Sequence record: MK373794.1
Strand: one strand, 5' to 3'
DNA length: 64,000 nt
Source: Escherichia phage vB_EcoS_HdK1
This document shows positions 2,998 through 57,260 of the stretch, piece after piece. Below the pieces are notes generated by a model. That model saw only the letters and a list, made by a program, of their open reading frames with translations. It had not been told where the DNA came from and made no database searches. The stretch's first letter is position 1. Each line of letters opens with the position of its first letter. Position numbers and translations under genes: made by a program.

Positions 2998-3073
2998 CTA
3001 TTATCTGCAATATTTTAGAACTTTTTTAGTTGTGTTTCATAATAATAACATCCGGGACTATGCGGTAGATGGT

Positions 3074-3147
3074 GTGCCGGAAATACCAGGTAGCGCGAGC
3101 GTGCCGAAAATACCAGGTAACAGCACGCGCCGAACATACCAGGTAGC
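3074..3147. repeat. Three 21-bp direct repeats (iteron-like), consensus GyGCCGrAmATACCAGGTArC
   Basis: gtgccggaaataccaggtagc (3074..3094), gtgccgaaaataccaggtaac (3101..3121), gcgccgaacataccaggtagc (3127..3147); spacing 27 and 26 bp; non-coding region. Confidence 0.6.
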
Positions 3148-3535
3148 ACATACATAGACAGCACATAGTGGGCAGGTGGATAGTAACAGATGCAATTATA
3201 CTGGACGGTACAGTATAGTCATGTAATAGATAGCATACTAATTAAATAAAAAATAATAACGCGTGTAACAATAAACAACGTTACAGTAGAGCGCGCAACA
3301 GTCACATGACGTAACAATCACCTCACTGACGATCACGGGACGTTATAGTAACGCCGCGGGGCGGCTCTTAGATCTCTGCCAAGGATTCTAGACGTAAACA
3401 TTGAATCGCCACTAGACTATTTACATCACAACCTCACTCCTCACACAATAATACATAGAATTTAAATCCGTATATAAATACTCGAGATAGTATCTACATA
3501 TTCGAGGATGAGTGCTCAATCATTGTAGGTTATAA

Positions 3536-4015
3536 ATGCGTATCAATTGGTGTGATTATTTCTCTTACGAAGATGGTAGACTTTACTGGAAGGCCAGTAG
3601 AGGAAGAATACGAGTAGGTTCAGAAGCCGGAAGCGAGGACCAACAAGGTTACATTGTGGTCAGGTTAAACGGGAAAGATTATAAAGCCCACCGCATCATT
3701 TGGGAAATGCACTATGGGCCGATACCAGAAGGAATGGAAGTTGACCACATTTGGCATAACCGAAAAGATAACCGGATTGAGAATCTGCGGTTAGTGACGC
3801 GTACAGGTAATGGGCGTAATCAGTCTAAATTTGCGACAAATACATCAGGTGTAACTGGTGTGAATTGGAATAGCCGGGCTGGTAAATGGAGAGCGGAAAT
3901 TTATGTTGATGGAAAGCATATATCTCTTGGTTTATTCACAATCTTTAATGATGCTGTCTTAGCGCGTAAATCGGCCGAGGCTAAGTATGGTTTCCATAAA
4001 AATCATGGCGAGTGA
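3536..4015 (+). CDS. HNH homing endonuclease with AP2 DNA-binding domain
   Basis: HNH motif EVDHIWHNRKDNRIENL; AP2-like segment GVTGVNWNSRAGKWRAEIYVDGKHISLGLF. Confidence 0.8.
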   Translation: MRINWCDYFSYEDGRLYWKASRGRIRVGSEAGSEDQQGYIVVRLNGKDYKAHRIIWEMHYGPIPEGMEVDHIWHNRKDNRIENLRLVTRTGNGRNQSKFATNTSGVTGVNWNSRAGKWRAEIYVDGKHISLGLFTIFNDAVLARKSAEAKYGFHKNHGE

Positions 4016-4075
4016 GCATGTTAATCAACTTGCGTATCCTGTTATAGTTATTCCGTTAACGTTAAAGGGGTTTAT

Positions 4076-4441
4076 ATGAACGAGAATATAGTTAAAGCCT
4101 GGTCTATCTTACGACCACAGCTGAAAGACGATCATGTCGCTTTTGTTTTATGTCCTGCTAACGAATATCGCCGGAAGCTCGAAGAAGTGTTGCGCGAAGA
4201 TCCTGAGTTCGTTCGCTGTGTGCAACTGTCGCGCGAGTCATCTGTGGTACAGTTTGATCGTTTCCATCTTCGTTTGGTTTCTCATCACAGAGCATCGTAT
4301 GAAGACACTGTTATTCGTACGAGTGGCTTTCATTGCGATATTGCAATTCTTGACTGCAAACTGGACATTGGGCAGAAACAGGATTTATATAATCTCGCTC
4401 GTGAACGTCATGGTGAATTGTTAATTGTGGAAGTGCAATAA
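4076..4441 (+). CDS. hypothetical protein (121 aa)
   Basis: ORF in a compact same-strand gene array; no recognised motif. Confidence 0.5.
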   Translation: MNENIVKAWSILRPQLKDDHVAFVLCPANEYRRKLEEVLREDPEFVRCVQLSRESSVVQFDRFHLRLVSHHRASYEDTVIRTSGFHCDIAILDCKLDIGQKQDLYNLARERHGELLIVEVQ

Positions 4442-4779
4442 TGGCCAAAGATATCGTTATTCCGAAAATGTATTGTCAGCTCCGTGATACTTTATTACAG
4501 AGCGGCTGGATTATTAGTCACAGCGATGTAAATGACACTTATATCGTTCTTATACCACCTGAAGGAACGATATCTTGCATTTTGCACTATATGCCCGAAG
4601 CAAAGACGGTTTATCCGAACGGGTCGTTCTTGCTTCGTCTGCGCTCCGACACATGGAAGATCCAGACTGATACCTGTGCAATTGACGAGAATACCAGTAA
4701 AGAGTTTATTCGCAAGCTAACTCAGCTGAATAAAATCTACGAGCATGTTAAATTTGATTTGTTTAAGGAAGTGTTCTAA
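4441..4779 (+). CDS. hypothetical protein (112 aa)
   Basis: ORF start overlaps the previous stop (ATGG/TAATGG style coupling). Confidence 0.5.
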   Translation: MAKDIVIPKMYCQLRDTLLQSGWIISHSDVNDTYIVLIPPEGTISCILHYMPEAKTVYPNGSFLLRLRSDTWKIQTDTCAIDENTSKEFIRKLTQLNKIYEHVKFDLFKEVF

Positions 4780-5219
4780 TGGTTACTATTAACGATCGCA
4801 TCACACATAAAACTCAGCCGACAATGATGTCTTGCATGGCAGCCTGTTTGGCTATGCTTCTTGACAGGGATGTTGAAGAGGTTGACAACGAATTCAGCCT
4901 AGACTACGTTCGTGGGTATATTGATGTTGCTACTTATCTATATCGACAAGGTATCTTTGCACAGCCACATATCACTGCCGGTATGCACCAAATATATCCA
5001 GGGCGCTTGTATCTTGCGACTGTACCTTCTTTGCAGTTACCTGGGCTTTTCCATCAGATCATTATTGACGCTCGTTTTGACGGTGTAACCGTATACGATC
5101 CAGCTAAAGGTCTGGAAGGGAAACAATATTATTCCTATGACCACATTGCAGAAGAAAACGAGCTGGCGTATCCTTTGCGGTCTTTCTTGATTGATTACGA
5201 AATTATATTACCGGAGTGA
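4779..5219 (+). CDS. papain-like cysteine peptidase, C39-like domain (putative)
   Basis: Q-x5-C signature QPTMMSCMAACLAMLL and a His block HQIIIDARFDGVTVYDPAKG resembling the C39 peptidase Gln/Cys/His arrangement. Confidence 0.45.
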   Translation: MVTINDRITHKTQPTMMSCMAACLAMLLDRDVEEVDNEFSLDYVRGYIDVATYLYRQGIFAQPHITAGMHQIYPGRLYLATVPSLQLPGLFHQIIIDARFDGVTVYDPAKGLEGKQYYSYDHIAEENELAYPLRSFLIDYEIILPE

Positions 5220-5222
5220 TTC

Positions 5223-5576
5223 ATGAGCTTGCAACGTTTTGACAATGCAGAACTCGCGTGTGAATTTGCAAAGCGCAAGTTCGCTAAAACAGGTACGCCG
5301 CGATGCGTGCACGCGGCTATTGGGCAAAATGGGGCAAAGTATTGGTACGTTGGTACAGTAGCTCAGATCAAGCGAAGATTCGCGACTACGCTCGAAATGC
5401 GCCGGCTTGGGTCCCCTACACTTGTACGAAACAGGCACTTGGATAAAGAGGAAATTTATCAATTTCTCAGAAATTACACTGGTAAAGAGAATAGATTTCA
5501 GGTTGCAGCGAAAGAGTTTAATATTGGTCTTTCCACTGCTTATAAAATTTATCACATATATGGGCGTTTAATATGA
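5223..5576 (+). CDS. hypothetical protein with C-terminal helix-turn-helix-like segment
   Basis: C-terminal KEFNIGLSTAYKIYHIY resembles an HTH; otherwise unassigned. Confidence 0.45.
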   Translation: MSLQRFDNAELACEFAKRKFAKTGTPRCVHAAIGQNGAKYWYVGTVAQIKRRFATTLEMRRLGSPTLVRNRHLDKEEIYQFLRNYTGKENRFQVAAKEFNIGLSTAYKIYHIYGRLI

Positions 5577-6076
5577 CCGCAATTGCTTATCGTAATGGGA
5601 TATTAGCTGTAGATCGACAGGTTACATGGGGTAATATTGCAACGACTACGAATAAAGTTCATACTATCAGTATTCCAGGGATTGGTCTGTGTCTTGTTGC
5701 CATGTCTGGTAAACTACGTGCTGTAGATGACATTGTAGAACATTTACAAACTACGTCACGTGGACGCAAAGAACCTTTCTCAGATTTAAACCCAGATTCG
5801 CGTTATGGTATTGCTGTGACGCAGGAACTTGTCGTATATCCTATCTACGGGGATGGTAAATTAGGTCTACCGGACACTAACGAATTTATTGCGGAAGGTA
5901 GTGCGTTTGAGTTCTTGATGGGTGCAATGGCGGGAGGTTGCACCGCCGAAGAGGCTGTACGACTGGCGTGCGTATACTGCGACAGTTGTGGTCAAGGGGT
6001 TAAGTTCTATGACGTAGCTTATACTCTAAAGTGGCGCAGTGTAAAATCGAGGAGAAACCATTTTGAAGAAGCCTAA
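5573..6076 (+). CDS. HslV / proteasome beta-subunit-like Ntn hydrolase (putative)
   Basis: N-terminus MTAIAYRNGILAVDRQVTWGN parallels HslV [25 protein letters not shown] (Thr nucleophile directly after Met); later IAEGSA resembles HslV IAIGSGG. Confidence 0.5.
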   Translation: MTAIAYRNGILAVDRQVTWGNIATTTNKVHTISIPGIGLCLVAMSGKLRAVDDIVEHLQTTSRGRKEPFSDLNPDSRYGIAVTQELVVYPIYGDGKLGLPDTNEFIAEGSAFEFLMGAMAGGCTAEEAVRLACVYCDSCGQGVKFYDVAYTLKWRSVKSRRNHFEEA

Positions 6077-6254
6077 GACTGGTCTGTTCCTTTGTGTTGG
6101 TGGACCTTTTGACGGTAAGCGTATACGCTTAACAACATCAGATTTGTATCCAAGTTCTTCCGTTTTCTCTGTTCCATCCTATAAAAACGGTGAGAAGGGG
6201 AAATACGTCTGGAATGATGAAATTCGAAACAGTGTAATCTGGAGAACATCGTGA
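6063..6254 (+). CDS. hypothetical small protein (63 aa, TTG start)
   Basis: GGAGAA RBS 8 nt upstream of TTG. Confidence 0.4.
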   Translation: MKKPKTGLFLCVGGPFDGKRIRLTTSDLYPSSSVFSVPSYKNGEKGKYVWNDEIRNSVIWRTS

Positions 6255-6478
6255 GTGATTCTACAAATGCGCAATTAGCCGCTGCAAGAGTGTATATGCG
6301 CGGAGCTGCCGCTGAGATTGATGCTTTGCCACAATTTGAAAAGCATGTACAGCAACTCGAAGATAAATTTAAGACTCTTAAAGATCTAGGGGATACGAAA
6401 GATGCTATAGCCTTTCTTCTTGCTATCCAATACTTGTCTATGGGGGTTGGTGACAAAGTATGTTCCTTAGAAGAATAA
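6251..6478 (+). CDS. hypothetical small protein (75 aa, GTG start)
   Basis: GGAGAA RBS upstream of GTG; coiled-coil-like composition. Confidence 0.4.
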   Translation: MSDSTNAQLAAARVYMRGAAAEIDALPQFEKHVQQLEDKFKTLKDLGDTKDAIAFLLAIQYLSMGVGDKVCSLEE

Positions 6479-6990
6479 TTGGTATTGTTGCACCTTGGAT
6501 ACCACTTGTCATAATTGTTATTCTAGCCAACTGGGCTTATGACAATGCCATAGAATCAGCTAGAAAGGAGGGTTTCGATGCCGGTGTGTCGTACCAAAAA
6601 GAAACTCAGAAAGCGGTTGATTTCGAGGAGGAGAAACGAAGAGCGTATGAGAAAGACACTATCGAACGTCAGTACAGATCTCGTATTGAATCTTTGGTTG
6701 CGATCTTAATAATTATCGCGCTACTAATGACAGGTTGCACAACGAAATCGCAACCGTCCGTAAGTACCTCGGTGACGCTACCGGCCCTCAGCCCGACAGC
6801 AAGACAACCGCCCAGATCGCCCGTGTGCTCACCGAGCTGTATTCAGAAAGCGTCACAGAATACAGACAAGTGGCAGAAGAGGCTGAAAAGTATCGTATTG
6901 CCGGCGAGCAGTGCGAACTACAGTATGATGCAATGCGAAATCCGCGTAAAGAAAAGTGATAAACTGCAAAGTCCTTGCCGGGTTGCGTAA
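6460..6990 (+). CDS. spanin-like locus (N-terminal TM domain; lipoprotein-box segment; coiled-coil C-terminus in another frame)
   Basis: N-terminal TM helix IIGIVAPWIPLVIIVILANWAY; signal-plus-lipobox LVAILIIIALLMTGC followed by Pro-rich tail; an overlapping frame (6690..6959) encodes a charged coiled-coil segment. Confidence 0.4.
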   Translation: MFLRRIIGIVAPWIPLVIIVILANWAYDNAIESARKEGFDAGVSYQKETQKAVDFEEEKRRAYEKDTIERQYRSRIESLVAILIIIALLMTGCTTKSQPSVSTSVTLPALSPTARQPPRSPVCSPSCIQKASQNTDKWQKRLKSIVLPASSANYSMMQCEIRVKKSDKLQSPCRVA

Positions 6991-7081
6991 CTAAACGTTC
7001 AATCTTAATTGCACATAATTGATTGTGTACATGTGATAATTCAACTATGCTCTATTCGGTTTAACTGAATGGAGCTTTTTT

Positions 7082-7516
7082 ATGACTGTGCAACCACGAG
7101 GTATCCGGAATAACAATCCGGGAAATATTCGTTGGGGTGATAATTGGAAAGGTCTTGTTCCTGAAAACAAACGGACTGACCGTTCCTTCTGTCAATTTAT
7201 CGATGTAAAATACGGTATTCGCGCCATTGCGCGTATTCTACTAAACTACCGCAACCGCGAAGGAATGAAACGTGTCGGAAACAAAGGGATTGACACTGTA
7301 CGGGAGATTATTTCGCGCTGGGCTCCGCCGAATGAAAATAACACTGAAGCCTATATTCAATCTGTGGCTAAGGCTTGTGGTGTTGGTGCAGAACAGCCGA
7401 TTTCAGTGACCGATGATAAAATCATGCTTGCAATCGTGAAAGCGATTATCAAACATGAGAACGGTGTGCAACCTTATTCTGATGAAGTTTTGCTCGCGGG
7501 TATTCACATGGCATAG
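7082..7516 (+). CDS. hypothetical protein; candidate endolysin by position only
   Basis: 144-aa soluble protein between the spanin-like and holin-like genes; conserved-looking motif RNNNPGNIR; no catalytic family confidently recognised. Confidence 0.3.
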   Translation: MTVQPRGIRNNNPGNIRWGDNWKGLVPENKRTDRSFCQFIDVKYGIRAIARILLNYRNREGMKRVGNKGIDTVREIISRWAPPNENNTEAYIQSVAKACGVGAEQPISVTDDKIMLAIVKAIIKHENGVQPYSDEVLLAGIHMA

Positions 7517-12874: not shown

Positions 12875-12883
12875 TAAAATTTG

Positions 12884-12912
12884 TTGACACTCCCTCCGGT
12901 TGGTGCTAGTTT
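12884..12912 (+). promoter_or_regulatory. promoter-like element and structured 5' leader before the major capsid gene
   Basis: TTGACA at 12884..12889; weak -10 (TAGTTT); 9-bp inverted repeat ctccggttg / caaccggag in the leader. Confidence 0.25.
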
Positions 12913-13012
12913 TACATCAACCGGAGCACGGGCTCCGATCAATCAAGGATTATTGGAGCCTCCCACGGCGGTAGAGTTCCAAAGTAAATCGATTAACTTT
13001 GCGGAGACTACC

Positions 13013-13573
13013 ATGTCTAAAATTCTGTCAGCTCCGATGCTTAATTTGCGAGCTACCAATTCAATTCTTCTGTCTGCTGTTCGTCGTGGTGCAATCACTG
13101 AACTTGCAGATGTTATCGTTCCAGAGATCTTCGTACCGTATGTGCAGAACCGCACAACTGAAAAGTCCCGACTGATCCAGTCTGGTGCTATTGAGATTTC
13201 TGAGCGTCTTAACGCTGCATTGATGGGTGAAGGTACTACCTTTAACCAGCGTTTCTTCAAAGATCTGGATCGTGACGAAGAAAACGTTTCAAGCGCAAGC
13301 GATTCAACCGATTCTACTCCTGGTGGTATCAAATCTGGGCGTGAAATTCAGATCCGTCTGTCCCGTAACCATTCCTGGGGTTCTGCGGACCTGCTGGACA
13401 GCCTGATCTCCCCGGACCCGCTGGATGCTATCATTAACTTAGTGGCAAGCTACCGTCAGAGCCGTCTGCAACGTGCATTCGTTGCAACTGTCAGTGGTGT
13501 GTTTGCTATGAACGCCGCTGCTCTCCGGTTGGTTCCGGTGATAAGAAGTCTACCCATGTTCAGAACGATATGA
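13013..13573 (+). CDS. major capsid protein, N-terminal fragment (gene interrupted by frameshift)
   Basis: ATG at 13013 with GGAG RBS; ORF terminates at 13573 while the capsid-like sequence continues in the -1 frame. Confidence 0.7.
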   Translation: MSKILSAPMLNLRATNSILLSAVRRGAITELADVIVPEIFVPYVQNRTTEKSRLIQSGAIEISERLNAALMGEGTTFNQRFFKDLDRDEENVSSASDSTDSTPGGIKSGREIQIRLSRNHSWGSADLLDSLISPDPLDAIINLVASYRQSRLQRAFVATVSGVFAMNAAALRLVPVIRSLPMFRTI

Positions 13574-14130
13574 CCCATGATATCTCTGGTTCATCCTTCA
13601 CTGATGGTGTGACTAACTTCAACCCGGCCGGTGTTATCCTGGCGGCTGGTACTATGGGTGACTCCCTGAACGACCTGTCCATGATGATGGTTCACAGTGT
13701 GGTTTACCAGCGTATGCAGCTGATGAACCTGATCGACTTCATCCCGGATGCCCGTGCTGAAGTAATGATCCCAACTTACATGGGCCGTGAAGTTATCGTT
13801 GATGATATGATGCCTCACGATAGCGGTAAGTACGAAACCTGGCTGGTCGGTCGTCGTGGTGCATTCCAGTTAGGTGTTGGTTCACCGAAAGTTCCTGTTG
13901 AAACTGAACGTAAACCTGCGTCCTACAAAGGTGGCGGTTCTGAAATCCTGTTCCACCGCTGGGAAAACATCATTCACCCTGTCGGTCACGCATGGGTTGG
14001 TACTGCTGCTGAAGGTGGCCCGGATAACGCCGCTCTGAAGACTGCTGCCAACTGGGCTCGTGTATTCCCTGAGCGTAAACAGATTAAGATTGCTCGCCCT
14101 GATCACTCGCGAACACGCTTAATGCTTTAG
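13570..14130 (+). CDS. major capsid protein, C-terminal fragment
   Basis: Open frame continues upstream of 13570 into the previous ORF (GSGDKKSTHVQND...); combined length about 370 aa fits an HK97-fold capsid protein. Confidence 0.7.
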   Translation: MTHDISGSSFTDGVTNFNPAGVILAAGTMGDSLNDLSMMMVHSVVYQRMQLMNLIDFIPDARAEVMIPTYMGREVIVDDMMPHDSGKYETWLVGRRGAFQLGVGSPKVPVETERKPASYKGGGSEILFHRWENIIHPVGHAWVGTAAEGGPDNAALKTAANWARVFPERKQIKIARPDHSRTRLML

Positions 14131-19114: not shown

Positions 19115-19506
19115 GATCCCGCGAAAAGCTAATTGATCACTTACTGCTCGAATGGCAATTGCACAGTTGCCCGCCGGGCAGTAAGACTCCAACAATTAAA
19201 CATCTCCAGCACGTTAAAAAAGTCACTGGTAAGACTCCCTCCTTACTAGCAAAGTACGAATCCAGCTCCGTACCACACGAACTCAGATACATTTACAAGT
19301 TATTTCTTGACTTTTATAATGGTGATAAATTCAGTTACAGCGAATTTAACGCCTGGCAAGATTATATAGGTGTAGAACTTGATTTCAGAGAGCGTGAACT
19401 AATTCGGGCCAGATTTGTCTTGAACGGCAAGCATTTGATATTAGGCGTCAACAAGAACTTATGCAACACGCTCAGACCAATAATAAAGGAGGTAAATAAT
19501 GGCTGA
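19108..19506 (+). CDS. tail assembly chaperone frameshift extension (G-T-like product)
   Basis: -1 frame relative to 18686..19114, open across the slippery site to 19506; ORF-track portion 19159..19506. Confidence 0.6.
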   Translation, partial: FLRSREKLIDHLLLEWQLHSCPPGSKTPTIKHLQHVKKVTGKTPSLLAKYESSSVPHELRYIYKLFLDFYNGDKFSYSEFNAWQDYIGVELDFRERELIRARFVLNGKHLILGVNKNLCNTLRPIIKEVNNG

Positions 19507-20335
19507 TGCAGCTGACATCGTCATTAGAGTCCGTGCTGAAGGTATTCAGAATGCTGAAACAGCACTGCGACGCTTGCAAGCGGCAGGTGTAAGAGTTGAG
19601 ACTGTCAGCTCGCGTATGGAGAATGGTTTTCACCGTGCGGCTACAAGTGCTGACGCGTTCCATCATGCCATTAGTGCAATCTATACGGTAATGACTGTAA
19701 CCACACTGACATCCTACGTCGGTGGGCTTGCTAAGTTATCGGATGCGTGGCTGGACGTTACTAACAAACTGGCTAACGCCAACTCTGCAAACGAGCAGAT
19801 GGTTGATATTCAAGAGCGAGTATTTGGTATCGCTCAAAGAACTCGTACGAGCCTGGAAGCTACGTCAACTCTTTATGCTCGTATGGAACGTTCACTGAAC
19901 CAGTACGGTGTGACTGGTAAACAGGTCGCTCAGATCACTGAAACAATTAACAAGGCAATGATTGTTTCTGGTGCAACCACTGCGGAATCCACTGCTGCTA
20001 TTATCCAGTTCTCACAGGGTCTGCAATCTGGTGTGTTACGTGGGGACGAATTCCGTTCTGTAATGGAACAAGCTCCTCGTCTTGGTAAGATGATTGCAGA
20101 TGGTCTTGGTGTTGGTACTGCTGGTCTACGCCAGATGGCTAACACTGGACAATTAACCGCTGATGTTGTTATTAACTCCATCTCTAAAGCTGCATCAACT
20201 ATTGACGATGAGTTTAATCGTACAATACCAACGTTCTCTCAGCGAATGGAGATTGCGAATAACAACTTAATTAAATTCGCGGGGAACGTCAACCTCGGTA
20301 CAAACTGTGGTCAATTCAATGGGTGCTGTCATTGA
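19499..20335 (+). CDS. tape measure protein, fragment 1 of 3
   Basis: TMP-like N-terminus; ORF ends at 20335 but protein-like sequence continues in the +1 frame from about 20271. Confidence 0.8.
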   Translation: MADAADIVIRVRAEGIQNAETALRRLQAAGVRVETVSSRMENGFHRAATSADAFHHAISAIYTVMTVTTLTSYVGGLAKLSDAWLDVTNKLANANSANEQMVDIQERVFGIAQRTRTSLEATSTLYARMERSLNQYGVTGKQVAQITETINKAMIVSGATTAESTAAIIQFSQGLQSGVLRGDEFRSVMEQAPRLGKMIADGLGVGTAGLRQMANTGQLTADVVINSISKAASTIDDEFNRTIPTFSQRMEIANNNLIKFAGNVNLGTNCGQFNGCCH

Positions 20336-21458
20336 AACTGCTACAGACCACCTCACCTTGCTGTCTAATGTCGCAATCGGTGTTGCTGCTATTGTTGGCG
20401 GTCGAATGATTACTGCACTGGCTGCACAGATTGCGGCATTCATAAAGCTCAACGCGATACAAGCAAGTAGCTCGGCCATAAACATTAAGACTATTGATGG
20501 TATCACAAGATCCGCAGTAGCTCGATATAATGAAGCACAAGCAACGTTAGCACAGGTTGCAGCCGAGCGCACCAAGATTCAGGCAGCATTGCAAGCCAAC
20601 CAAACGTATTATAAAGGTATAGCGACACTCAACGCATACATGCAGAATACGCGGCAGGTGCGCGAAGCTACGGAAGCGGTTGCTATTGCCCAGACTACCA
20701 TGCAGGCGCGTATGTCTGCCGCGACCGTAGCGTCCCGTGTGCTTACTGTCACCATGACAGGACTGCGGACGGTAATGGGCTTGATGGGTGGACCTGTAGG
20801 TGTGGTCACATTGGCTGCTGCCGCATGGTTCATGTGGAGTCAAAATAGCAAACAAGCTGTCCAGGATGCACAGAACCTTGCTTCCTCCCAAGAAGATTTA
20901 AAGAACAAGTTAAAAGAAACAACTCTTGAACAGCAACGAGCTCTTAGTGTTCAGTTGCAACGTGCCGCTATTACGTTGGACGAACAGATTGCCTCTGAAA
21001 ACAGGGAGTTGGCTGAATTAAAGAACCGTCTTAGCACAGTAACGCGCTATCAAGCTGAAGCAACTGAAGGAACAAGCGAGTATAACCGACTCACTAAAGA
21101 CCGTAAGGAATTAGAAGGTGATGTCGCTATTAAGATTGGTGAAATATCCACTCTTGAGCAAAAAGCACAACAGATTAAATCTAATTTAACGACTGTACTG
21201 AACAATTTAACTGCTGCTGTAATGGGTCACACCGATGCACTCAAAGCAGAAAACGAGCAGTTATCTATTAATATCAGTTCTGCTGCCGGTCGTTCGAAGG
21301 AGCTAGTTAGTGCAATCCAAGCTCAGAATAATGAGCTCGATGTTGCTCAATTGAAGATGTCTGGTCATGCACGACAAGCAAGCATCTTAAAAGATGCTCA
21401 GACAGCTCTTGGTAAGAAGTATAAAGAAAACGAATCGTTCATCCAAGAATTATATTAG
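20307..21458 (+). CDS. tape measure protein, fragment 2 of 3
   Basis: Hydrophobic and coiled-coil segments typical of TMP; second frame break near 21400..21458. Confidence 0.8.
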   Translation: MVNSMGAVIETATDHLTLLSNVAIGVAAIVGGRMITALAAQIAAFIKLNAIQASSSAINIKTIDGITRSAVARYNEAQATLAQVAAERTKIQAALQANQTYYKGIATLNAYMQNTRQVREATEAVAIAQTTMQARMSAATVASRVLTVTMTGLRTVMGLMGGPVGVVTLAAAAWFMWSQNSKQAVQDAQNLASSQEDLKNKLKETTLEQQRALSVQLQRAAITLDEQIASENRELAELKNRLSTVTRYQAEATEGTSEYNRLTKDRKELEGDVAIKIGEISTLEQKAQQIKSNLTTVLNNLTAAVMGHTDALKAENEQLSINISSAAGRSKELVSAIQAQNNELDVAQLKMSGHARQASILKDAQTALGKKYKENESFIQELY

Positions 21459-22761
21459 CGGTCACGCTGACGCAACTGCTGTATTAACGGATGAGCAACG
21501 AGGACTGGTTGAATTTATCAACTTGTCTGGAAAGAACTATGACGCTCAGAAGAAGATCCATGAACAGCAAGAAAAAGAACGTCAGAGTAAGAAAGACAAT
21601 AAAGCTGCCATACGCTATGCTGAACAATGGGATAAAGCATATGAACGCGTAGAAGCGCGTGGTGCTACTGGTTTACAGCGTCTTAACTTACAGCAAGAAG
21701 CTGAAGTTCGTGCTATTCGTGATAAAGCTGAACGAGCTAAAGCATCTGAAGAAGAATTACAGAATGCCTTACTGGCTATTCAACGTAAGTACGATCTGAA
21801 ACGTGCAGAACTGGCAGAGCAGTACAAGCCAGGCGTTGCAATGGTGCGTGCGTACAAAGAAGCCCAGCAAGAAATAAATCAGTTGCTTGAAGCTGGTTTA
21901 TTGACAGAGCAACAGGCATATACGGCTAGATTGAATTTGCAGGCGGATTATTATACAAAACGTGCGCAAATGCAATCTGAATTGAACCCCGCTGGACAAG
22001 CTGCTGATCAAGAAGCTGCTGAACTTGCAACACTTAAATCCCAGTATGAAACAGCGATTGAATTAGCTACTGGTAAGGAAGAGCAACTAACCGCTATCAA
22101 AGAGAACTATGAGCGCATACGACACGACATTCAGTTGAAGTACGCTCAGAAGCAGATGCTCGCACAGAACCAGACGGCAATGGCTTACATTGAAAGTCTG
22201 AGCTCTATGGCTGGATCAATGACCACAATTATGGCGGCTGCTGGCGATGATGCTAGTGGTGCTTACAGGGTTATGTTCGCACTGTCTAAATCGTTCAGTA
22301 TTGCTCAGTCGATGTTAAGTATTACTACCGCACTGTCGCAGGTGTTAGCAGATCCGACAGCATTGACACCGATGCAAAAGATGGCCAACTACGCGACTAT
22401 TGCAGCCGCTGGTGCTAACATTATTTCGACATTATCCAGTGTCGCCCTTACTGGTATGGCTCACGATGGTATAGCCAACGTTCCAGAAGAGGGTACGTGG
22501 CTTCTGAATAAAGGTGAACGAGTTCTTAGTCCCCAACAGAACGCGGACTTTACTAACTTTATGAAGGGTCAATCAAATACTGGCAATAATTCGGGTGGGG
22601 GTGTTATCATTAACCAGAACTTTAACATCCAGGGTAATGGTGATGCAGCTTTGAAAAGCGCAGTTCAACAAGCTGCGAGAGATGGCGCCCAGCAAGGTTA
22701 TAACATGGTACTCCAAGACTTTGCTAACCGTGGATCAATTAGAAAATTAGCGTTGGGGTAA
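21394..22761 (+). CDS. tape measure protein, fragment 3 of 3
   Basis: Coiled-coil rich; the three fragments total about 1,090 aa. Confidence 0.8.
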   Translation: MLRQLLVRSIKKTNRSSKNYISGHADATAVLTDEQRGLVEFINLSGKNYDAQKKIHEQQEKERQSKKDNKAAIRYAEQWDKAYERVEARGATGLQRLNLQQEAEVRAIRDKAERAKASEEELQNALLAIQRKYDLKRAELAEQYKPGVAMVRAYKEAQQEINQLLEAGLLTEQQAYTARLNLQADYYTKRAQMQSELNPAGQAADQEAAELATLKSQYETAIELATGKEEQLTAIKENYERIRHDIQLKYAQKQMLAQNQTAMAYIESLSSMAGSMTTIMAAAGDDASGAYRVMFALSKSFSIAQSMLSITTALSQVLADPTALTPMQKMANYATIAAAGANIISTLSSVALTGMAHDGIANVPEEGTWLLNKGERVLSPQQNADFTNFMKGQSNTGNNSGGGVIINQNFNIQGNGDAALKSAVQQAARDGAQQGYNMVLQDFANRGSIRKLALG

Positions 22762-44507: not shown

Positions 44508-46511
44508 TCAAAACGGAATGTCGTCATCAAAGTCTGGTGGTAGTTCTTTACCGTTACCAGTAAGAATAGGTTGATTAGACGTAGAATGCAATACTGTCGT
44601 ACGGGAATCAGTCTGCTCATCTTCATCAAACTTATTCGTATAACTTCCACCAAACTGGGACAGACCATTCATTGCTGCAATTTGTACAACCGGACGTTCG
44701 TTTGTTGCTTCTTTCTTACCGAATTCACTACCATCATAGCAACTATTCAACACTTCGGGGAACTTACCCTTCAAGTTGACATATATGTGCGTCGGTACAC
44801 GAAGCTGGCTGACCACATTGAGTGCTTCGTCAATGTTAGCTGGGATTGCCAAGCTGCAATGCTCGCGCCACCAGTTACGCGCTTTCTTACCTGCAAAGCC
44901 GGTATGGAACAGGCAAATATATTGTTGAATAGTTTGTGAGCCACAAAGATAGTCCACGCGAAGTGTCGGTGGCTTAGAACGGTCACCCCTGTTCTCGTGG
45001 CGGTAGTAACTCACCATATCAACTTTCAATACCTCAGTGACTGGTAAATCATTCTTGATAATAGCTTTCGTACTAGCACTCGCCATTAGTTTCTTCTCAA
45101 AAGTAAACTCATGACCGCAATAACCAGCACGGCACGCTTTATTATTCGTAATGGTATAACCTAATCCTTGCAGATAGAGTATTTCTTCATGTGACATGCT
45201 ACTTGTGTCGAATGGTTTTAACCCACCACAGAAGCGAACTGACGCATGGTTCCATGTTTTACATATTGGGCATTCCTTAACAGGTGCAGCGGATTTTCCT
45301 TTCTGCCCTGGACGCTTAGGAATAACAGGGTCATTAATAGGCCCAAGGCGCCTTGTGTTACCTGCATAATCCAATACAAGACAGTTCTGTTTATGCGAAG
45401 CGGAGATAGCTTGCAAACGACCCTCTGTTGTGGTCAAATCAAAACCATCTGCATAATCAGGTCGTGTACCACGTCCAAGCATCTGAACCCACAAACGGGA
45501 AGATTGAGATGGTCGCATACCAATTATCAAGTCAAGTCCTGGATGGTCAAAGCCTGTCGTTAATACGTTGTTGTTTGCTATTGCCTGTAAACGACCAGCT
45601 TTAAAATCAATAAGATACTGGTCACGCAAGGCTTTCGGTGTATCACCAGTTACAACTTCACAACTAATACCGCGCTCGTTGAGGTAGTCCTTGACATCTT
45701 TTGCATGGTCTACACCAGCACAAAAGACAAGCCAACTCATTCTATTCTCTTCTTCCGCAATACTAATCGCATCATCTAATAAATGGCGAGTTACATCAGG
45801 ATCGTTTACAACCTTTTGAAGCTCACTTTCAATGAACTCACCGCCTCGAGTATGAACACCACTTACATCATACTCTTTCTTTGTTTTACGTGGTACTAAC
45901 GGAACAAGATAACCCTCATCAATGAACCAGTTGAAGCACTCTACGGTACATGCGTTAAATACGATTTCATCAAATAAAGCATTAGGCGCATAATCATCTT
46001 TGATAATAGAACCAAAACCAAGACGCCAACTCGTAGCAGTAAGACCGATAATCTTTAGATATGGATTCTTTTCACGAATGTGCGCAAAGAACTTCTGGTA
46101 ACTTGTTTGTTGATTTGGGCTAATAAGGTCACATTCGTCAACTATAATAATATCAACGTCCTCAAAGTATTTAGCTTGTTTTGCAACAGACTGAATACCC
46201 GCGAACGTTATCATTGCGTTCTTATCTTTGCGGCCCATACCAGCACTATAAATACCAGTCGGTGCTTCAGGCCACAACTTCTTAAATTTATCGTGGTTCT
46301 GGTCTATCAATTCTTTTACGTGAGTAATTACCATCATGCGGGTACTACCCCAATTATCGTGAATTGTCTTTAATAGACCAGCAATTACAAGGGACTTACC
46401 AGTCCCTGTAGGCAACAAGATAACAGGATTTCCTGACTTTTCACCATGCTTGATGAAATAGCGCAATGTACTGTTTACAGCTTCTTGCTGATAATCACGT
46501 AGTTTGAACAT
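44508..46511 (-). CDS. superfamily 2 DNA helicase (DExD-box) with zinc-finger and SSB-like acidic C-terminal tip
   Basis: Motif I LLPTGTGKS; motif II IIVDECD; motif VI QMLGRGTR; CPICKTW...FCGG zinc finger; C-terminus ...PPDFDDDIPF. Confidence 0.8.
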   Translation of the reverse strand: MFKLRDYQQEAVNSTLRYFIKHGEKSGNPVILLPTGTGKSLVIAGLLKTIHDNWGSTRMMVITHVKELIDQNHDKFKKLWPEAPTGIYSAGMGRKDKNAMITFAGIQSVAKQAKYFEDVDIIIVDECDLISPNQQTSYQKFFAHIREKNPYLKIIGLTATSWRLGFGSIIKDDYAPNALFDEIVFNACTVECFNWFIDEGYLVPLVPRKTKKEYDVSGVHTRGGEFIESELQKVVNDPDVTRHLLDDAISIAEEENRMSWLVFCAGVDHAKDVKDYLNERGISCEVVTGDTPKALRDQYLIDFKAGRLQAIANNNVLTTGFDHPGLDLIIGMRPSQSSRLWVQMLGRGTRPDYADGFDLTTTEGRLQAISASHKQNCLVLDYAGNTRRLGPINDPVIPKRPGQKGKSAAPVKECPICKTWNHASVRFCGGLKPFDTSSMSHEEILYLQGLGYTITNNKACRAGYCGHEFTFEKKLMASASTKAIIKNDLPVTEVLKVDMVSYYRHENRGDRSKPPTLRVDYLCGSQTIQQYICLFHTGFAGKKARNWWREHCSLAIPANIDEALNVVSQLRVPTHIYVNLKGKFPEVLNSCYDGSEFGKKEATNERPVVQIAAMNGLSQFGGSYTNKFDEDEQTDSRTTVLHSTSNQPILTGNGKELPPDFDDDIPF

Positions 46512-54669: not shown

Positions 54670-54696
54670 ATGGGCGCATATAGCGCCCATTTTTTA
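54670..54696. terminator. bidirectional Rho-independent terminator
   Basis: Stem atgggcgc / gcgcccat (54670..54677 and 54683..54690) followed by TTTTTT on the plus strand and T-rich sequence on the minus strand. Confidence 0.55.
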
Positions 54697-55746
54697 TAAC
54701 TTAATAACTTCGTTCATTCTCTCAATATCTACCAAATAACACTTCATTCTCGGTGGTGTAAACTCTGCGCCGAAGAAATTTGAAAAGTCCATTGGCCTCA
54801 TCTCGGTAAGAACTTCCATAGACATCAAACCATAGATTGTATTGTCTATGACCTGTAGGATGTTGTCATTTCTTGTCTGTTTAAAAGCCTTGAACTGGCG
54901 ACATACTGTGCATAGATCACTCCTTGTGACAATAAATGCGTCCTTAAACATGGGAAACCGTTTATATACACCAGCTTTAACTTCACCATCCAAGAACTTC
55001 TTAATGGAGTTCAGCATTATCTTCTCACGACTTGTACTGTCCGTAGAACCAATCTGCCCACTGTTACGCTTCTCTAAGAAACGCTCGTTACCCTGATCGA
55101 TAAATGACTCAGCCCAACGATAATGTTCCATAGTGACAACAGGACGCTCACTGTTATCTGCAACAGCAAGAAGAGAAGCTATACGCAATACCTTCAACGC
55201 CTTCCTTGTGTACATCTGACGAATTACTTCGTCTTGCACCTGCTCACCATCATTGCCGCTGTTCAGGAACTTCGCAACAATATTATCAAGATTATCAAAC
55301 GCTTCGTGTACCTCTGCTTCCATTTCAACATAACACGGAGCAGTCCCTGACATAATACGCACAGCTTGTTTATAGATAGCTCCAATAGTGCGCAGTATTG
55401 CTTCTGGATATTCCAGGAGCATACTCTTATTCATCAATGGGCGGTTAGCTGTACATTCCCATGCGATAATACGGGACATGAAACCACTCGACATCATGCG
55501 GTCATCTACGTTCCCGTAAAATTCATCTGGTGTTGTTTCACCTGCAAAACTATACGCCTTAACCTTACCGCCAGCAGTCGTATTATCTTTACTAGAGTGC
55601 TTTGAACCACCAGAGAAAGCATAGAAATGCCCCTTGTCATAAAGGGAAAGCATTTCATCCATAATGTCTTTAGCTTTACCGACTTCCATCTTACCGTTAC
55701 GGAAAAAATGCACCGACTTCAGTCTTATAGTTAATGGATGAGCCAC
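54694..55746 (-). CDS. primase-polymerase / helicase-like replication protein, C-terminal fragment (multiply frameshifted gene spanning 54694..57260)
   Basis: 350-aa ORF continuous in sequence with upstream fragments; frame break next to an 8-A homopolymer at about 55881..55888. Confidence 0.45.
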   Translation of the reverse strand: MAHPLTIRLKSVHFFRNGKMEVGKAKDIMDEMLSLYDKGHFYAFSGGSKHSSKDNTTAGGKVKAYSFAGETTPDEFYGNVDDRMMSSGFMSRIIAWECTANRPLMNKSMLLEYPEAILRTIGAIYKQAVRIMSGTAPCYVEMEAEVHEAFDNLDNIVAKFLNSGNDGEQVQDEVIRQMYTRKALKVLRIASLLAVADNSERPVVTMEHYRWAESFIDQGNERFLEKRNSGQIGSTDSTSREKIMLNSIKKFLDGEVKAGVYKRFPMFKDAFIVTRSDLCTVCRQFKAFKQTRNDNILQVIDNTIYGLMSMEVLTEMRPMDFSNFFGAEFTPPRMKCYLVDIERMNEVIKL

Positions 55747-55767
55747 AAGACATAACGGACGTATCCA

Positions 55768-56352
55768 TTATGACATCCTTGCGCAATGCAGCATCAGACG
55801 CATAGGTACTTGTATCCAAGACACGTTCGATACCAAATATCTGCTGACCGTCTTGACCGCCATAATTGGATACTTGAGAAAAAAAAGAATAGTTTCAATG
55901 TTGGAGCGAAACGCTTCTTTACCAATACCAGAACGTGCAATTAGTACAAAGTAGTTATTCAAACCACTTCGTGTGACTGTGTTCCACGCCTTACCGCACA
56001 TACCACTAAATAAAGCAAGCGCAGACAGAATACTAATGTCTTTAATAGGCAACAAGCTCGCTTTATACATATTACGCGCAACCTCGCCCATAAAGCCCGG
56101 AGGCCAAGCCAAACCGTCTGCCTGCTCTTCAGTGTAATTACCATCTGTAGTCAACACTTCTTCAGGTGGGCGTTCTGGTGTAGTTGCTTGACGTAGTTTT
56201 TCCGTGCGCTCTATAGCTGCATTAACGTTATTCTGAACTATCTGCATAAGTCCCATAGATTTAACATGGGCATCGTAGCGATAGTTGCGAATCATTCTAT
56301 CCAGGTGGTACGGACGTTTAATTTTTTCACCAGGCATACGACGGGGAATCAT
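55768..56352 (-). CDS. primase-polymerase / helicase-like protein, central fragment
   Basis: Segment ...NYFVLIARSGIGKEAF then out-of-frame tail; overlaps the upstream fragment in another frame. Confidence 0.4.
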   Translation of the reverse strand: MIPRRMPGEKIKRPYHLDRMIRNYRYDAHVKSMGLMQIVQNNVNAAIERTEKLRQATTPERPPEEVLTTDGNYTEEQADGLAWPPGFMGEVARNMYKASLLPIKDISILSALALFSGMCGKAWNTVTRSGLNNYFVLIARSGIGKEAFRSNIETILFFLKYPIMAVKTVSRYLVSNVSWIQVPMRLMLHCARMS

Positions 56353-56474
56353 CGTAACGGCTACTCATTGGTGAATACATGAATAGACGTCTTACCTGGA
56401 AATTGTACTTACTCTTAAAGCAAAGAAAGTCAATTAATGCAAATTCTGCTTCAGACTGAGAAGGGAAACAACGT

Positions 56475-56855
56475 TCACCGATTAGAAGTATCAACTTCTT
56501 CAGCTCTCCAACGACCCTCCCATAGCTGCTTAAACAATGTTCCGTTTTCTTGTTCGCACAACTGAATATAGACATCCTGGTCTTCCATTGCATATGGGTC
56601 GTTACTAAAATCTTCTTCAGTAAGTTCCAGCATTTGGAAGCCATCAGACTCATTAATCTCACTCATCTCAGACATAAGTTGGATGAATGAGATTAGCGAT
56701 ATACCCTTCGCTTTCACTGCCTGGAGCACCAGACACAGTGCGCGGGAGTAAAGTAACATCCCAGTGATCCCCTGTACAGATAATAAAACGATACTGGGAA
56801 TACACTTCCACACCGTCACGGCGCTTACCAGCCTGAGGGGATGGAATAAATCCAT
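56475..56855 (-). CDS. primase-polymerase-like protein, internal fragments (at least 3 frames used between 56327 and 56871)
   Basis: Protein-like segments alternate between frames, e.g. TEISRSGDGLHTWIYSIPSGW then AGKRRDGVEVYSQYRFII then SEMSEINESDGFQMLELTEEDF. Confidence 0.35.
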   Translation of the reverse strand: MDLFHPLRLVSAVTVWKCIPSIVLLSVQGITGMLLYSRALCLVLQAVKAKGISLISFIQLMSEMSEINESDGFQMLELTEEDFSNDPYAMEDQDVYIQLCEQENGTLFKQLWEGRWRAEEVDTSNR

Positions 56856-56894
56856 GTGTGCAACCCATCACCGCTTCTGGAAATTTCCGTATAG

Positions 56895-57260
56895 CTATGG
56901 AAACGATTCAACAATCTTCTTATATCGCTCACCAGCAACTTTCTTTTCCATTTCAGACATGGTATCTTTAATGTCCATGTCGATACAACAGAACGGGTCA
57001 CTTGGAAGTAGATAGAAACCTAAACGCAAGTTATGACCAATCTCGTTATAATAACGAACGCAGCGTTCAGCATCTTCAAAAGACATAAGTAAATGCAGGT
57101 TAGACGGTTTCTTATCATTACCGTCTTTACGAAGTGGGACCATATCCCCTAAATCATCGTCCCATACATAAGGTTGTTTTTCTGATGATGTACCCGGATG
57201 GAAACCGCAGACAGCCCACTGTTCGTATTGTTTAATTTCTTGAGGAAAAAGTTCCAGCAT
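56895..57260 (-). CDS. primase-polymerase (AEP superfamily) N-terminal fragment
   Basis: Prim-pol-like pattern EQWAVCGF...KKP...LMSFEDAER...GHNLRLGFYLLPSDPFCCIDMDIKD (DxD motif); downstream SGDGLHTW motif in a shifted frame. Confidence 0.5.
   Translation of the reverse strand: MLELFPQEIKQYEQWAVCGFHPGTSSEKQPYVWDDDLGDMVPLRKDGNDKKPSNLHLLMSFEDAERCVRYYNEIGHNLRLGFYLLPSDPFCCIDMDIKDTMSEMEKKVAGERYKKIVESFP

Follow-up and report, generated by a model that had tools for sequence, protein, structure and literature searches.

We describe two neighbouring genes of Escherichia phage vB_EcoS_HdK1 (sequence record MK373794.1) whose products are unrelated small peptidase homologues, namely a stand-alone C39-like cysteine peptidase of 146 amino acids (aa) and a PPH-type homologue of the proteasome and HslV, which is 167 aa long in the window. 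The window is the whole stretch of 64,000 nucleotides that was analysed. The locus is best explained as encoding two unrelated small cytoplasmic peptidases, probably both catalytically active, that constitute a conserved accessory pair of Queuovirinae siphophages, and we consider it moderately probable that this explanation holds as a whole, that is, that both proteins are active, accessory peptidases cutting host or phage proteins. Two open reading frames (ORFs) lie exactly at the positions given in the original prediction, which had been made from the sequence alone, and the profile searches and structure models that it had named as checks support both folds.

4779..5219, plus strand: stand-alone C39-like (papain clan CA) cysteine peptidase, 146 aa (ORF listing and family profile)
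5573..6076, plus strand: PPH-type proteasome/HslV homologue with the fold of an N-terminal-nucleophile threonine peptidase, 167 aa in the window

The finding largely re-derives existing annotation, in which the two families appear as PPH or "peptidase HslV family" and as "papain-like cysteine protease". What is new here is a corrected label for the timing of expression, a corrected label for the origin of the proteins and a corrected gene length.

The C39-like cysteine peptidase

The 146-aa protein is identical to QBQ80915.1 and falls in phrog_4049, a family annotated as function unknown. As a single query it finds nothing significant in Pfam, NCBIfam, PADLOC or PDB sequence searches, and with no Pfam match at E<=1 it lies below the gathering threshold of the C39 family PF03412. 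A family profile and a structure model were needed, and the profile search against 1.84 billion representative proteins at E<=1e-3 found 778 clusters (50% identity), from which 150 representatives with 26-45% identity were drawn for the conservation alignment. The listed relatives (150) are mostly stand-alone proteins of ~120-190 aa, which is near single-domain size. Among these representatives H92, D107 and P108 are invariant, while conservation reaches at least 90% for Q13, C19, C23 and a VPSL[NQ] motif, so that the motifs exceed a chance resemblance. The protein displays the Gln-x5-Cys and the downstream His and Asp(-Pro) of C39 peptidases; the Gln-x5-Cys and His of this arrangement had been the basis for predicting that it is C39-like.

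Comparison with known families leads to the same assignment. Pfam Peptidase_C39 (PF03412) is matched directly by nine of the 150 relatives, with a best E of 2.4e-6; the only other protease-clan match in this set is Phytochelatin, found in one member at E 0.007, and no rival protease family scores comparably to PF03412. The family profile pairs Q13, C19, H92 and D107-P108 with their equivalents in LahT150, in a weak alignment (E 0.7). Foldseek places PCAT1 at the top rank for the structure model (probability 1.0, TM-score ~0.5), and the model has a papain-like fold closest to C39 domains. The setting of an exporter domain, typical of C39, is absent, as JenP2, a close relative, has no annotated ABC transporter and the 146-aa ORF stands alone. 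We class the protein as a clan-CA cysteine peptidase that stands alone and resembles C39 enzymes in fold and motifs; the GenBank record of phage ESCO3 already names its orthologue "papain-like cysteine protease".

The predicted active site consists of the oxyanion residue Gln13, the nucleophile Cys19 (accompanied by a second conserved cysteine, Cys23), His92 and Asp107-Pro108. In the mechanism that we propose, Gln13 would form the oxyanion hole and Cys19 would attack the substrate as the nucleophile, with His92 and Asp107 completing the triad. By analogy with C39, the enzyme would cleave a defined substrate specifically, at small-residue (Gly-Gly-type) sites, rather than degrade proteins in bulk.

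The proteasome/HslV homologue

The 167-aa ORF begins MTAIAYRNGILAVDRQVTWGN and matches phrog_1040 "peptidase HslV family" at E 3.5e-35; its orthologues carry the same name in RefSeq. There is no Pfam or NCBIfam match at E<=1, and single-sequence PADLOC and PDB searches are also without significant matches. With a profile made from 20 relatives, the top six PDB matches are all proteasome beta subunits or HslV (E 0.007-0.08). When the PPH alignment was compared by hhalign with E. coli HslV as a single sequence, the aligned part was confined to the C-terminal half and had a low probability. Within the family, residues M1, T2, D14, K28 and G46 do not vary. When the protein is aligned with E. coli HslV by MAFFT, at ~26% identity, T2, D14 and K28 align with Thr1, Asp17 and Lys33, AEGSAF stands opposite AIGSGG, and G46 is the equivalent of Gly47. 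The protein has the proteasome-like alpha-beta-beta-alpha fold of N-terminal-nucleophile hydrolases, together with an N-terminal Thr that is not preceded by a propeptide and with the equivalents of Asp17, Lys33 and Gly47, so that the prediction of an HslV-like protein with Thr2 as the potential nucleophile is borne out by phrog_1040, by the PDB profile matches and by the invariance of T2. A wider search collected ~1400 relatives of 140-170 aa, some with a precomputed PF00227 match.

The same prediction had described both proteins as host-type proteases, and this part of it does not stand: no Pfam or NCBIfam protease model matched either of them, tblastn with E. coli HslV does not detect the PPH gene in the window, and PPH is a phage-specific family (PMC8665760).

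Since 113 of 121 PPH relatives start with 'MT', exposure of the predicted nucleophile Thr2 would need removal of the initiator Met only, without propeptide processing. Host methionine aminopeptidase would thus expose Thr2 as a propeptide-free N-terminal nucleophile, and Asp14, Lys28 and Gly46 would complete a proteasome-type active site in subunits that probably assemble into rings like those of HslV and BPH.

The compact subunit lacks one element of HslV. Its model has a single helix (residues 48-58), followed by a loop (59-76) and the next strand, where HslV has helices H1 and H2, and the MAFFT alignment has a gap opposite helix H2. The H1/H2 region of proteasomes forms the apical face that contacts the neighbouring or activator ring. 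The window likewise offers no partner, as had been predicted: a tblastn search of the window with E. coli HslU turns up nothing (best E 0.97), the annotation of JenP2 includes no AAA+ protein, and Walker A motifs in the window are confined to the large terminase and a 248-aa ORF at the position of the Sak4-like ssDNA-annealing protein of JenP2. With helix H2 absent and no unfoldase encoded by the phage, PPH probably works without a dedicated AAA+ partner. It could instead hijack the host HslU and form a hybrid ATP-dependent protease, but we regard this as distinctly unlikely: docking is doubtful without helix H2, whose absence is seen in the model and the alignment and is described for the group (PMC8665760), and the low identity to E. 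coli HslV goes together with the failure of tblastn and of the NCBIfam/Pfam HslV and proteasome models to match.

The 3' end of the PPH gene and its acidic tail

The length of 167 aa that was originally given for the PPH protein is correct for the ORF as written in the window, but this ORF is the product of a 1-bp deletion and the relatives have 164 aa.

6020..6076, plus strand: frameshifted 3' end of the PPH gene, with a 1-bp deletion near 6027 in DNA alignments to JenP2, ESCO3 and 9g

The deletion, which JenP2, ESCO3 and 9g do not have, alters the last ~15 residues from ...LKMAQCKPEEEPF (164 aa) to ...LKWRSVKSRRNHFEEA (167 aa), replacing the EEEPF with which the 164-aa protein ends, and it also abolishes the overlap between the PPH stop codon and the start of a downstream 63-aa ORF. 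Compared with JenP2 the window contains many isolated 1-2-bp indels, so that its genes for the major capsid protein, the tape measure and the primase are each broken up over several ORFs (12881-14130; 19499-22761; 54694-57260); it looks like an error-prone assembly, and ORF lengths taken from it call for caution. As the window is full of isolated indels that split essential genes, the change in the PPH tail is probably a sequence-quality artefact. The deposited 9g sequence has a PPH frameshift of its own near codon 59, and only the 83-aa C-terminal fragment is annotated there (NC_024146.1 30245-30738; L016:1328-1821). This frameshift, like that of the tail in the window, hints that PPH is dispensable, in the laboratory if the 9g frameshift is real; otherwise the latter is a sequencing error.

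The intact tail is a recurrent feature. In many Queuovirinae the PPH protein has an acidic C-terminal tail whose last two residues are P-[F/W/Y], in the forms EEEPF, PEIPF, NDDIPY, DGDIPW, EEPVPW and DDPPY (relatives P0001-P0007, P0010, P0022, P0029, P0203, P0208, P0209 and P0212, and L011:4001-4492). The terminal P-[F/W/Y] is kept while the rest of the tail varies, and more distant PPH proteins are without the motif. The C-terminal tip of SSB is DDDIPF, and the Queuovirinae PPH tails are similar to it. The window also encodes a 667-aa SF2 helicase (ResIII/DEAD/Helicase_C; 44508-46511, minus strand) that terminates in ...ELPPDFDDDIPF (...DFDDDIPF), which is essentially the C-terminal tip of E. 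coli SSB. Judged from this likeness, the helicase C-terminus may mimic the motif that docks onto SSB clients, and the acidic PPH tail and the helicase tail may share one docking motif.

Linkage of the two genes across phages

Nonagvirus, Seuratvirus (Seurat gp82-gp84), Klebsiella phage Kpn2-P2, Enterobacter phage EC151 and the metagenomic contig L014 all retain one gene order, in which the C39-like gene is followed by zero or one small gene, the PPH gene and the lysis cassette; in EC151 the C39-like and PPH genes abut. Identity between the lineages that keep the pair is 33-55%, and the surrounding genes, including the 117-aa gene in the middle, have been replaced. That adjacency is retained in five lineages despite such replacement of the flanks speaks for a single system. 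One such scheme would have the C39-like enzyme clip a target or activate a partner, with degradation by the PPH ring as the second step. We nevertheless think a single system unlikely, as each gene is found without the other in many phages and adjacency inside one subfamily may be mere vertical inheritance.

The C39-like gene occurs without PPH in Kuttervirus, in Samunavirus (in a small-gene cluster of Pseudomonas phage SM1) and on contig L013. The Kuttervirus homologue sits between the genes for the large and medium subunits of topoisomerase II, and in Salmonella phage allotria (Kuttervirus; L006:3986-4435) stop and start codons overlap with those of the topoisomerase II neighbours. PPH occurs without the C39-like gene in Edwardsiella phage PEi21 (in a small-gene cluster), at an Aeromonas phage locus and on contig L012; it is also gene 1 of Erwinia jumbo phages, and in one of these, Huxley, the 3.4 kb examined at the left end hold no C39-like gene. 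Obligatory linkage was rejected on the evidence of the distant contigs L012 and L013, which carry one gene each. The pair is a conserved accessory feature of Queuovirinae and not an obligatory two-component system.

In Aeromonas phage 2L372D (L010:2432-3885) two genes named 'peptidase HslV family' stand in tandem, with products of 183 and 294 aa, of which the latter has a long acidic C-terminal extension. This gene pair may encode a hetero-oligomeric phage proteasome homologue.

Genomic setting and expression timing

The window is the genome of a 9g-like siphophage (Queuovirinae, Nonagvirus), laid out as a single 60,692-bp unit followed by an exact 3,308-bp copy of its own start; over the 3 kb from 4000 to 7000 it shares 96% identity with phages HdSG1 and JenP2. 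Two genome arms diverge at the intergenic region 3010-3536. The plus-strand arm (~3.5 to 34 kb) has the peptidase genes first and then the spanin, endolysin, holin, terminase and structural genes, and the minus-strand arm carries the replication and deazaguanine-modification genes. The features around the peptidase genes are as follows:

3010..3536, no strand assigned: divergent intergenic region, origin of both arms, with promoter-like sites
4076..4779, plus strand: two ORFs 5' of the C39-like gene, 121 aa and 112 aa, each stop overlapping the next start
5223..5576, plus strand: 117-aa ORF between the peptidase genes, its stop overlapping the PPH start by 4 nt
7049..7085, plus strand: strong terminator-like hairpin (7049-7075; 12-bp stem) followed by a T-run, in a 91-nt gap that is the only sizeable one of the block

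Genes overlap or almost abut from 4076 to 6990 and therefore appear to be translationally coupled, with the 121-aa and 112-aa ORFs tightly coupled to the C39-like gene. The 9g homologue of the 121-aa ORF carries the annotation 'potential sigma factor', and only the 112-aa ORF of the two is conserved in Kpn2-P2. The 117-aa ORF between the peptidase genes, which the original prediction did not mention, matches phrog_17085 (function unknown) at E 2.5e-80, and weak HTH_7/HTH_23 matches at residues 71-113 suggest that it may be a small DNA-binding protein of the helix-turn-helix type. In Klebsiella phage Kpn2-P2 its positional counterpart bears the label 'late transcriptional activator' on the strength of a weak phrog_532 match (E 1.9e-4). 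The 117-aa ORF has no counterpart in the Seurat, EC151 or PEi21 loci and is not conserved outside Nonagvirus. It was considered as a conserved third component and rejected, there being no homologue in PEi21 or Seurat and a pairwise E of only 0.085 to the Kpn2-P2 counterpart.

The hairpin lies between the spanin and endolysin genes and closes the tightly packed block 4076-6990, so that the lysis genes are possibly divided by it across a transcription boundary. The 176-aa spanin ORF (6460-6990) combines a transmembrane segment at the N-terminus with a lipobox-like LLMTGC in its interior, and its two halves correspond to two different reading frames of phage 9g; it represents either an i-spanin/o-spanin pair joined by another indel or an unusual architecture.

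In the divergent region a CCGrAAmATACCAGGTArC-like repeat occurs three times, at spaced positions, and each copy is a candidate operator site; the end of the 3,308-bp terminal repeat also falls inside this region. At the head of the rightward arm stands an HNH homing-endonuclease ORF (3536-4015; phrog_99, E 9e-68). It is probably a mobile insertion, because near-identity to JenP2 and other relatives begins only downstream of it, at 4018.

Expression timing has been considered in the work on phage 9g (Kulikov et al. 2014, PMC4276943), which describes two transcription regions diverging from closely spaced promoters, predicts divergent promoters in the region corresponding to 3010-3536, and assigns the arm with the morphogenetic and lysis genes to late functions. 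The peptidase genes, presented as early genes in the original prediction, are the promoter-proximal part of this arm called late and head its lysis and morphogenesis genes. Their block also contains the gene noted in 9g as a potential sigma factor and the gene with weak helix-turn-helix matches; given these two genes and the hairpin before the endolysin gene, the block could be an early or middle rightward operon. The label "early" is consequently unsupported but not disproved. In the proposed mechanism, both peptidase genes would be transcribed from the rightward promoter as members of the tightly coupled block whose end lies directly before the endolysin gene.

The same surroundings bear on two other functions. 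One or both proteins might be morphogenetic proteases for prohead, scaffold or tail proteins, given that the genes share an arm with packaging and structural genes and that JenP2 has no annotated canonical prohead protease between portal and major capsid protein. However, the genes lie outside the head module, 5' of the lysis cassette and with the terminator-like hairpin in between, a separate scaffolding protein is annotated in JenP2, homologues elsewhere reside among DNA-metabolism genes or in small-gene clusters, and 9g is viable although PPH is frameshifted in its record. Many phages with a separate scaffold require no protease. No head-maturation module was found among the homologue contexts examined, and we hold a morphogenetic function to be improbable. 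It is very improbable, in our estimate, that the C39-like protein serves the lysis cassette as an accessory peptidase of the cell wall, comparable to papain-fold pseudomurein endoisopeptidases or to CHAP/NlpC-P60 endolysin domains. The genes that accompany the homologues elsewhere suggest that host or replication-related proteins are cleaved, and they speak against both virion maturation and cell-wall hydrolysis: a non-morphogenetic role fits the topoisomerase II genes of Kuttervirus, the small-gene clusters of Samunavirus and PEi21, and gene 1 of the jumbo phages. Virion maturation and cell-wall lysis are therefore the less likely roles.

Proposed role and significance

Both proteins are taken as active enzymes because they have complete catalytic sets under strong conservation; the catalytic residues of both families are invariant or near-invariant, as expected under purifying selection. 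The analysis shows the ORFs, the folds, the conserved catalytic residues, the synteny and the lack of HslU, and from these the catalytic activity, oligomeric state, type of substrate, timing of expression and biological role are inferred. The likeliest role of the two peptidases would be site-specific cleavage or inactivation of host proteins, possibly also of phage replication proteins, during infection. Alternatively, both could be catalytically dead scaffolds or binding proteins in which the folds have been kept. Many proteasome homologues, such as the alpha subunits, are inactive, and curated protease models are not matched by the window proteins, yet canonical residues that are invariant or nearly so over hundreds of diverged relatives would be unexpected for pseudo-enzymes, and we give this alternative very little credence.

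Several points weigh against the preferred reading of two active accessory peptidases. Both window proteins are below threshold on all curated protease models, the Foldseek TM-scores for the C39 match are modest, and no biochemical data on any member of either phage family were found in the literature. The location just 5' of the lysis and packaging genes could mean a late role related to lysis or assembly, and the PPH frameshifts may be sequencing errors, in which case they are uninformative on dispensability.

A more specific and quite improbable version of the host-directed role is that the pair is a host-takeover toolkit against the DNA-transaction machinery of the host, and it combines two separate ideas. 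The first is that the C39-like peptidase might cut a Gly-Gly site of an essential host protein, with the HAGG|K loop of GyrB/ParE as the candidate. The Kuttervirus phage topoisomerase II has YAGSNF where GyrB has the HAGGKF loop, which is consistent with this idea but not discriminating, as a phage topoisomerase II without the GG motif is normal for T4/eukaryote-type enzymes. The second idea is that the acidic ...(D/E)(D/E)(I/P)P[F/Y/W]-COOH tail of PPH might mimic the SSB tip and dock the protease on SSB-client proteins. A PADLOC search for defence and anti-defence functions with the window proteins gave no match.

Both families are widespread in phages (~780 clusters of the C39-like family and ~1400 relatives of PPH), and no experimental characterisation was found in the literature. 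With a free C39 domain in a phage, the range of double-glycine peptidases, which covers bacteriocin export and inter-bacterial toxins, would come to include phage-host conflict. Should the targets be host replication proteins, topoisomerases or defence proteins, the two peptidases would be new takeover or anti-defence enzymes, and if such targets prove true they could also serve as compact site-specific proteases.

Comparison with known systems

In the literature search, neither a study of the HslV-like or C39-like proteins in Nonagvirus or Seuratvirus nor any later work on PPH was found. The C39 domains of PCAT/AMS transporters (PCAT1, LahT150, ComA, CvaB; PF03412) are fused to ABC transporters, whereas the phage protein is stand-alone and cytoplasmic. 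In addition, no bacteriocin-like substrate with a double-glycine leader is evident for it, its family has its own VPSL[NQ] motif, and the window protein falls below the Pfam threshold. A precedent for C39 activity inside the cytoplasm is StbD-CT, a contact-dependent-inhibition toxin of the C39 family from Citrobacter rodentium (PDB 8ssm/8ssk), which cleaves GyrB and ParE at a Gly-Gly site, HAGG|K (bioRxiv 10.64898/2026.05.07.723447). Unlike the phage protein, StbD-CT has CdiA-like delivery with an entry domain and an immunity protein, and no sequence-level match was found between it and the phage C39-like family.

The second protein differs from HslV (ClpQ) in its ~26% identity, in the absence of H2, in having no HslU gene as a neighbour and in not being recognised by the Pfam/NCBIfam models. 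"HslV without HslU" has already been noted for a Salmonella jumbo phage (PMC7823757). The PPH group has been described as proteins of ~140 residues from Caudovirales and prophages that are related to HslV and BPH and lack both a propeptide and H2 (PMC8665760), and, judged by alignments and the structure model, the 167-aa protein fits every stated feature of this description. Like PPH it is phage-borne, belongs to a family of ~140-165 aa with a compact subunit of ~140 residues without helix H2, has a Thr directly after the initiator Met and the equivalents of Asp17, Lys33 and Gly47, is closest to HslV and BPH, and has no unfoldase gene next to it. The published description does not mention the acidic tail with final P-[F/W/Y] that many Queuovirinae members have and that is lost from the window copy by the frameshift. 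The close relatives found for the protein come from phages of Proteobacteria (Enterobacteriaceae, Erwinia, Aeromonas, Vibrio).

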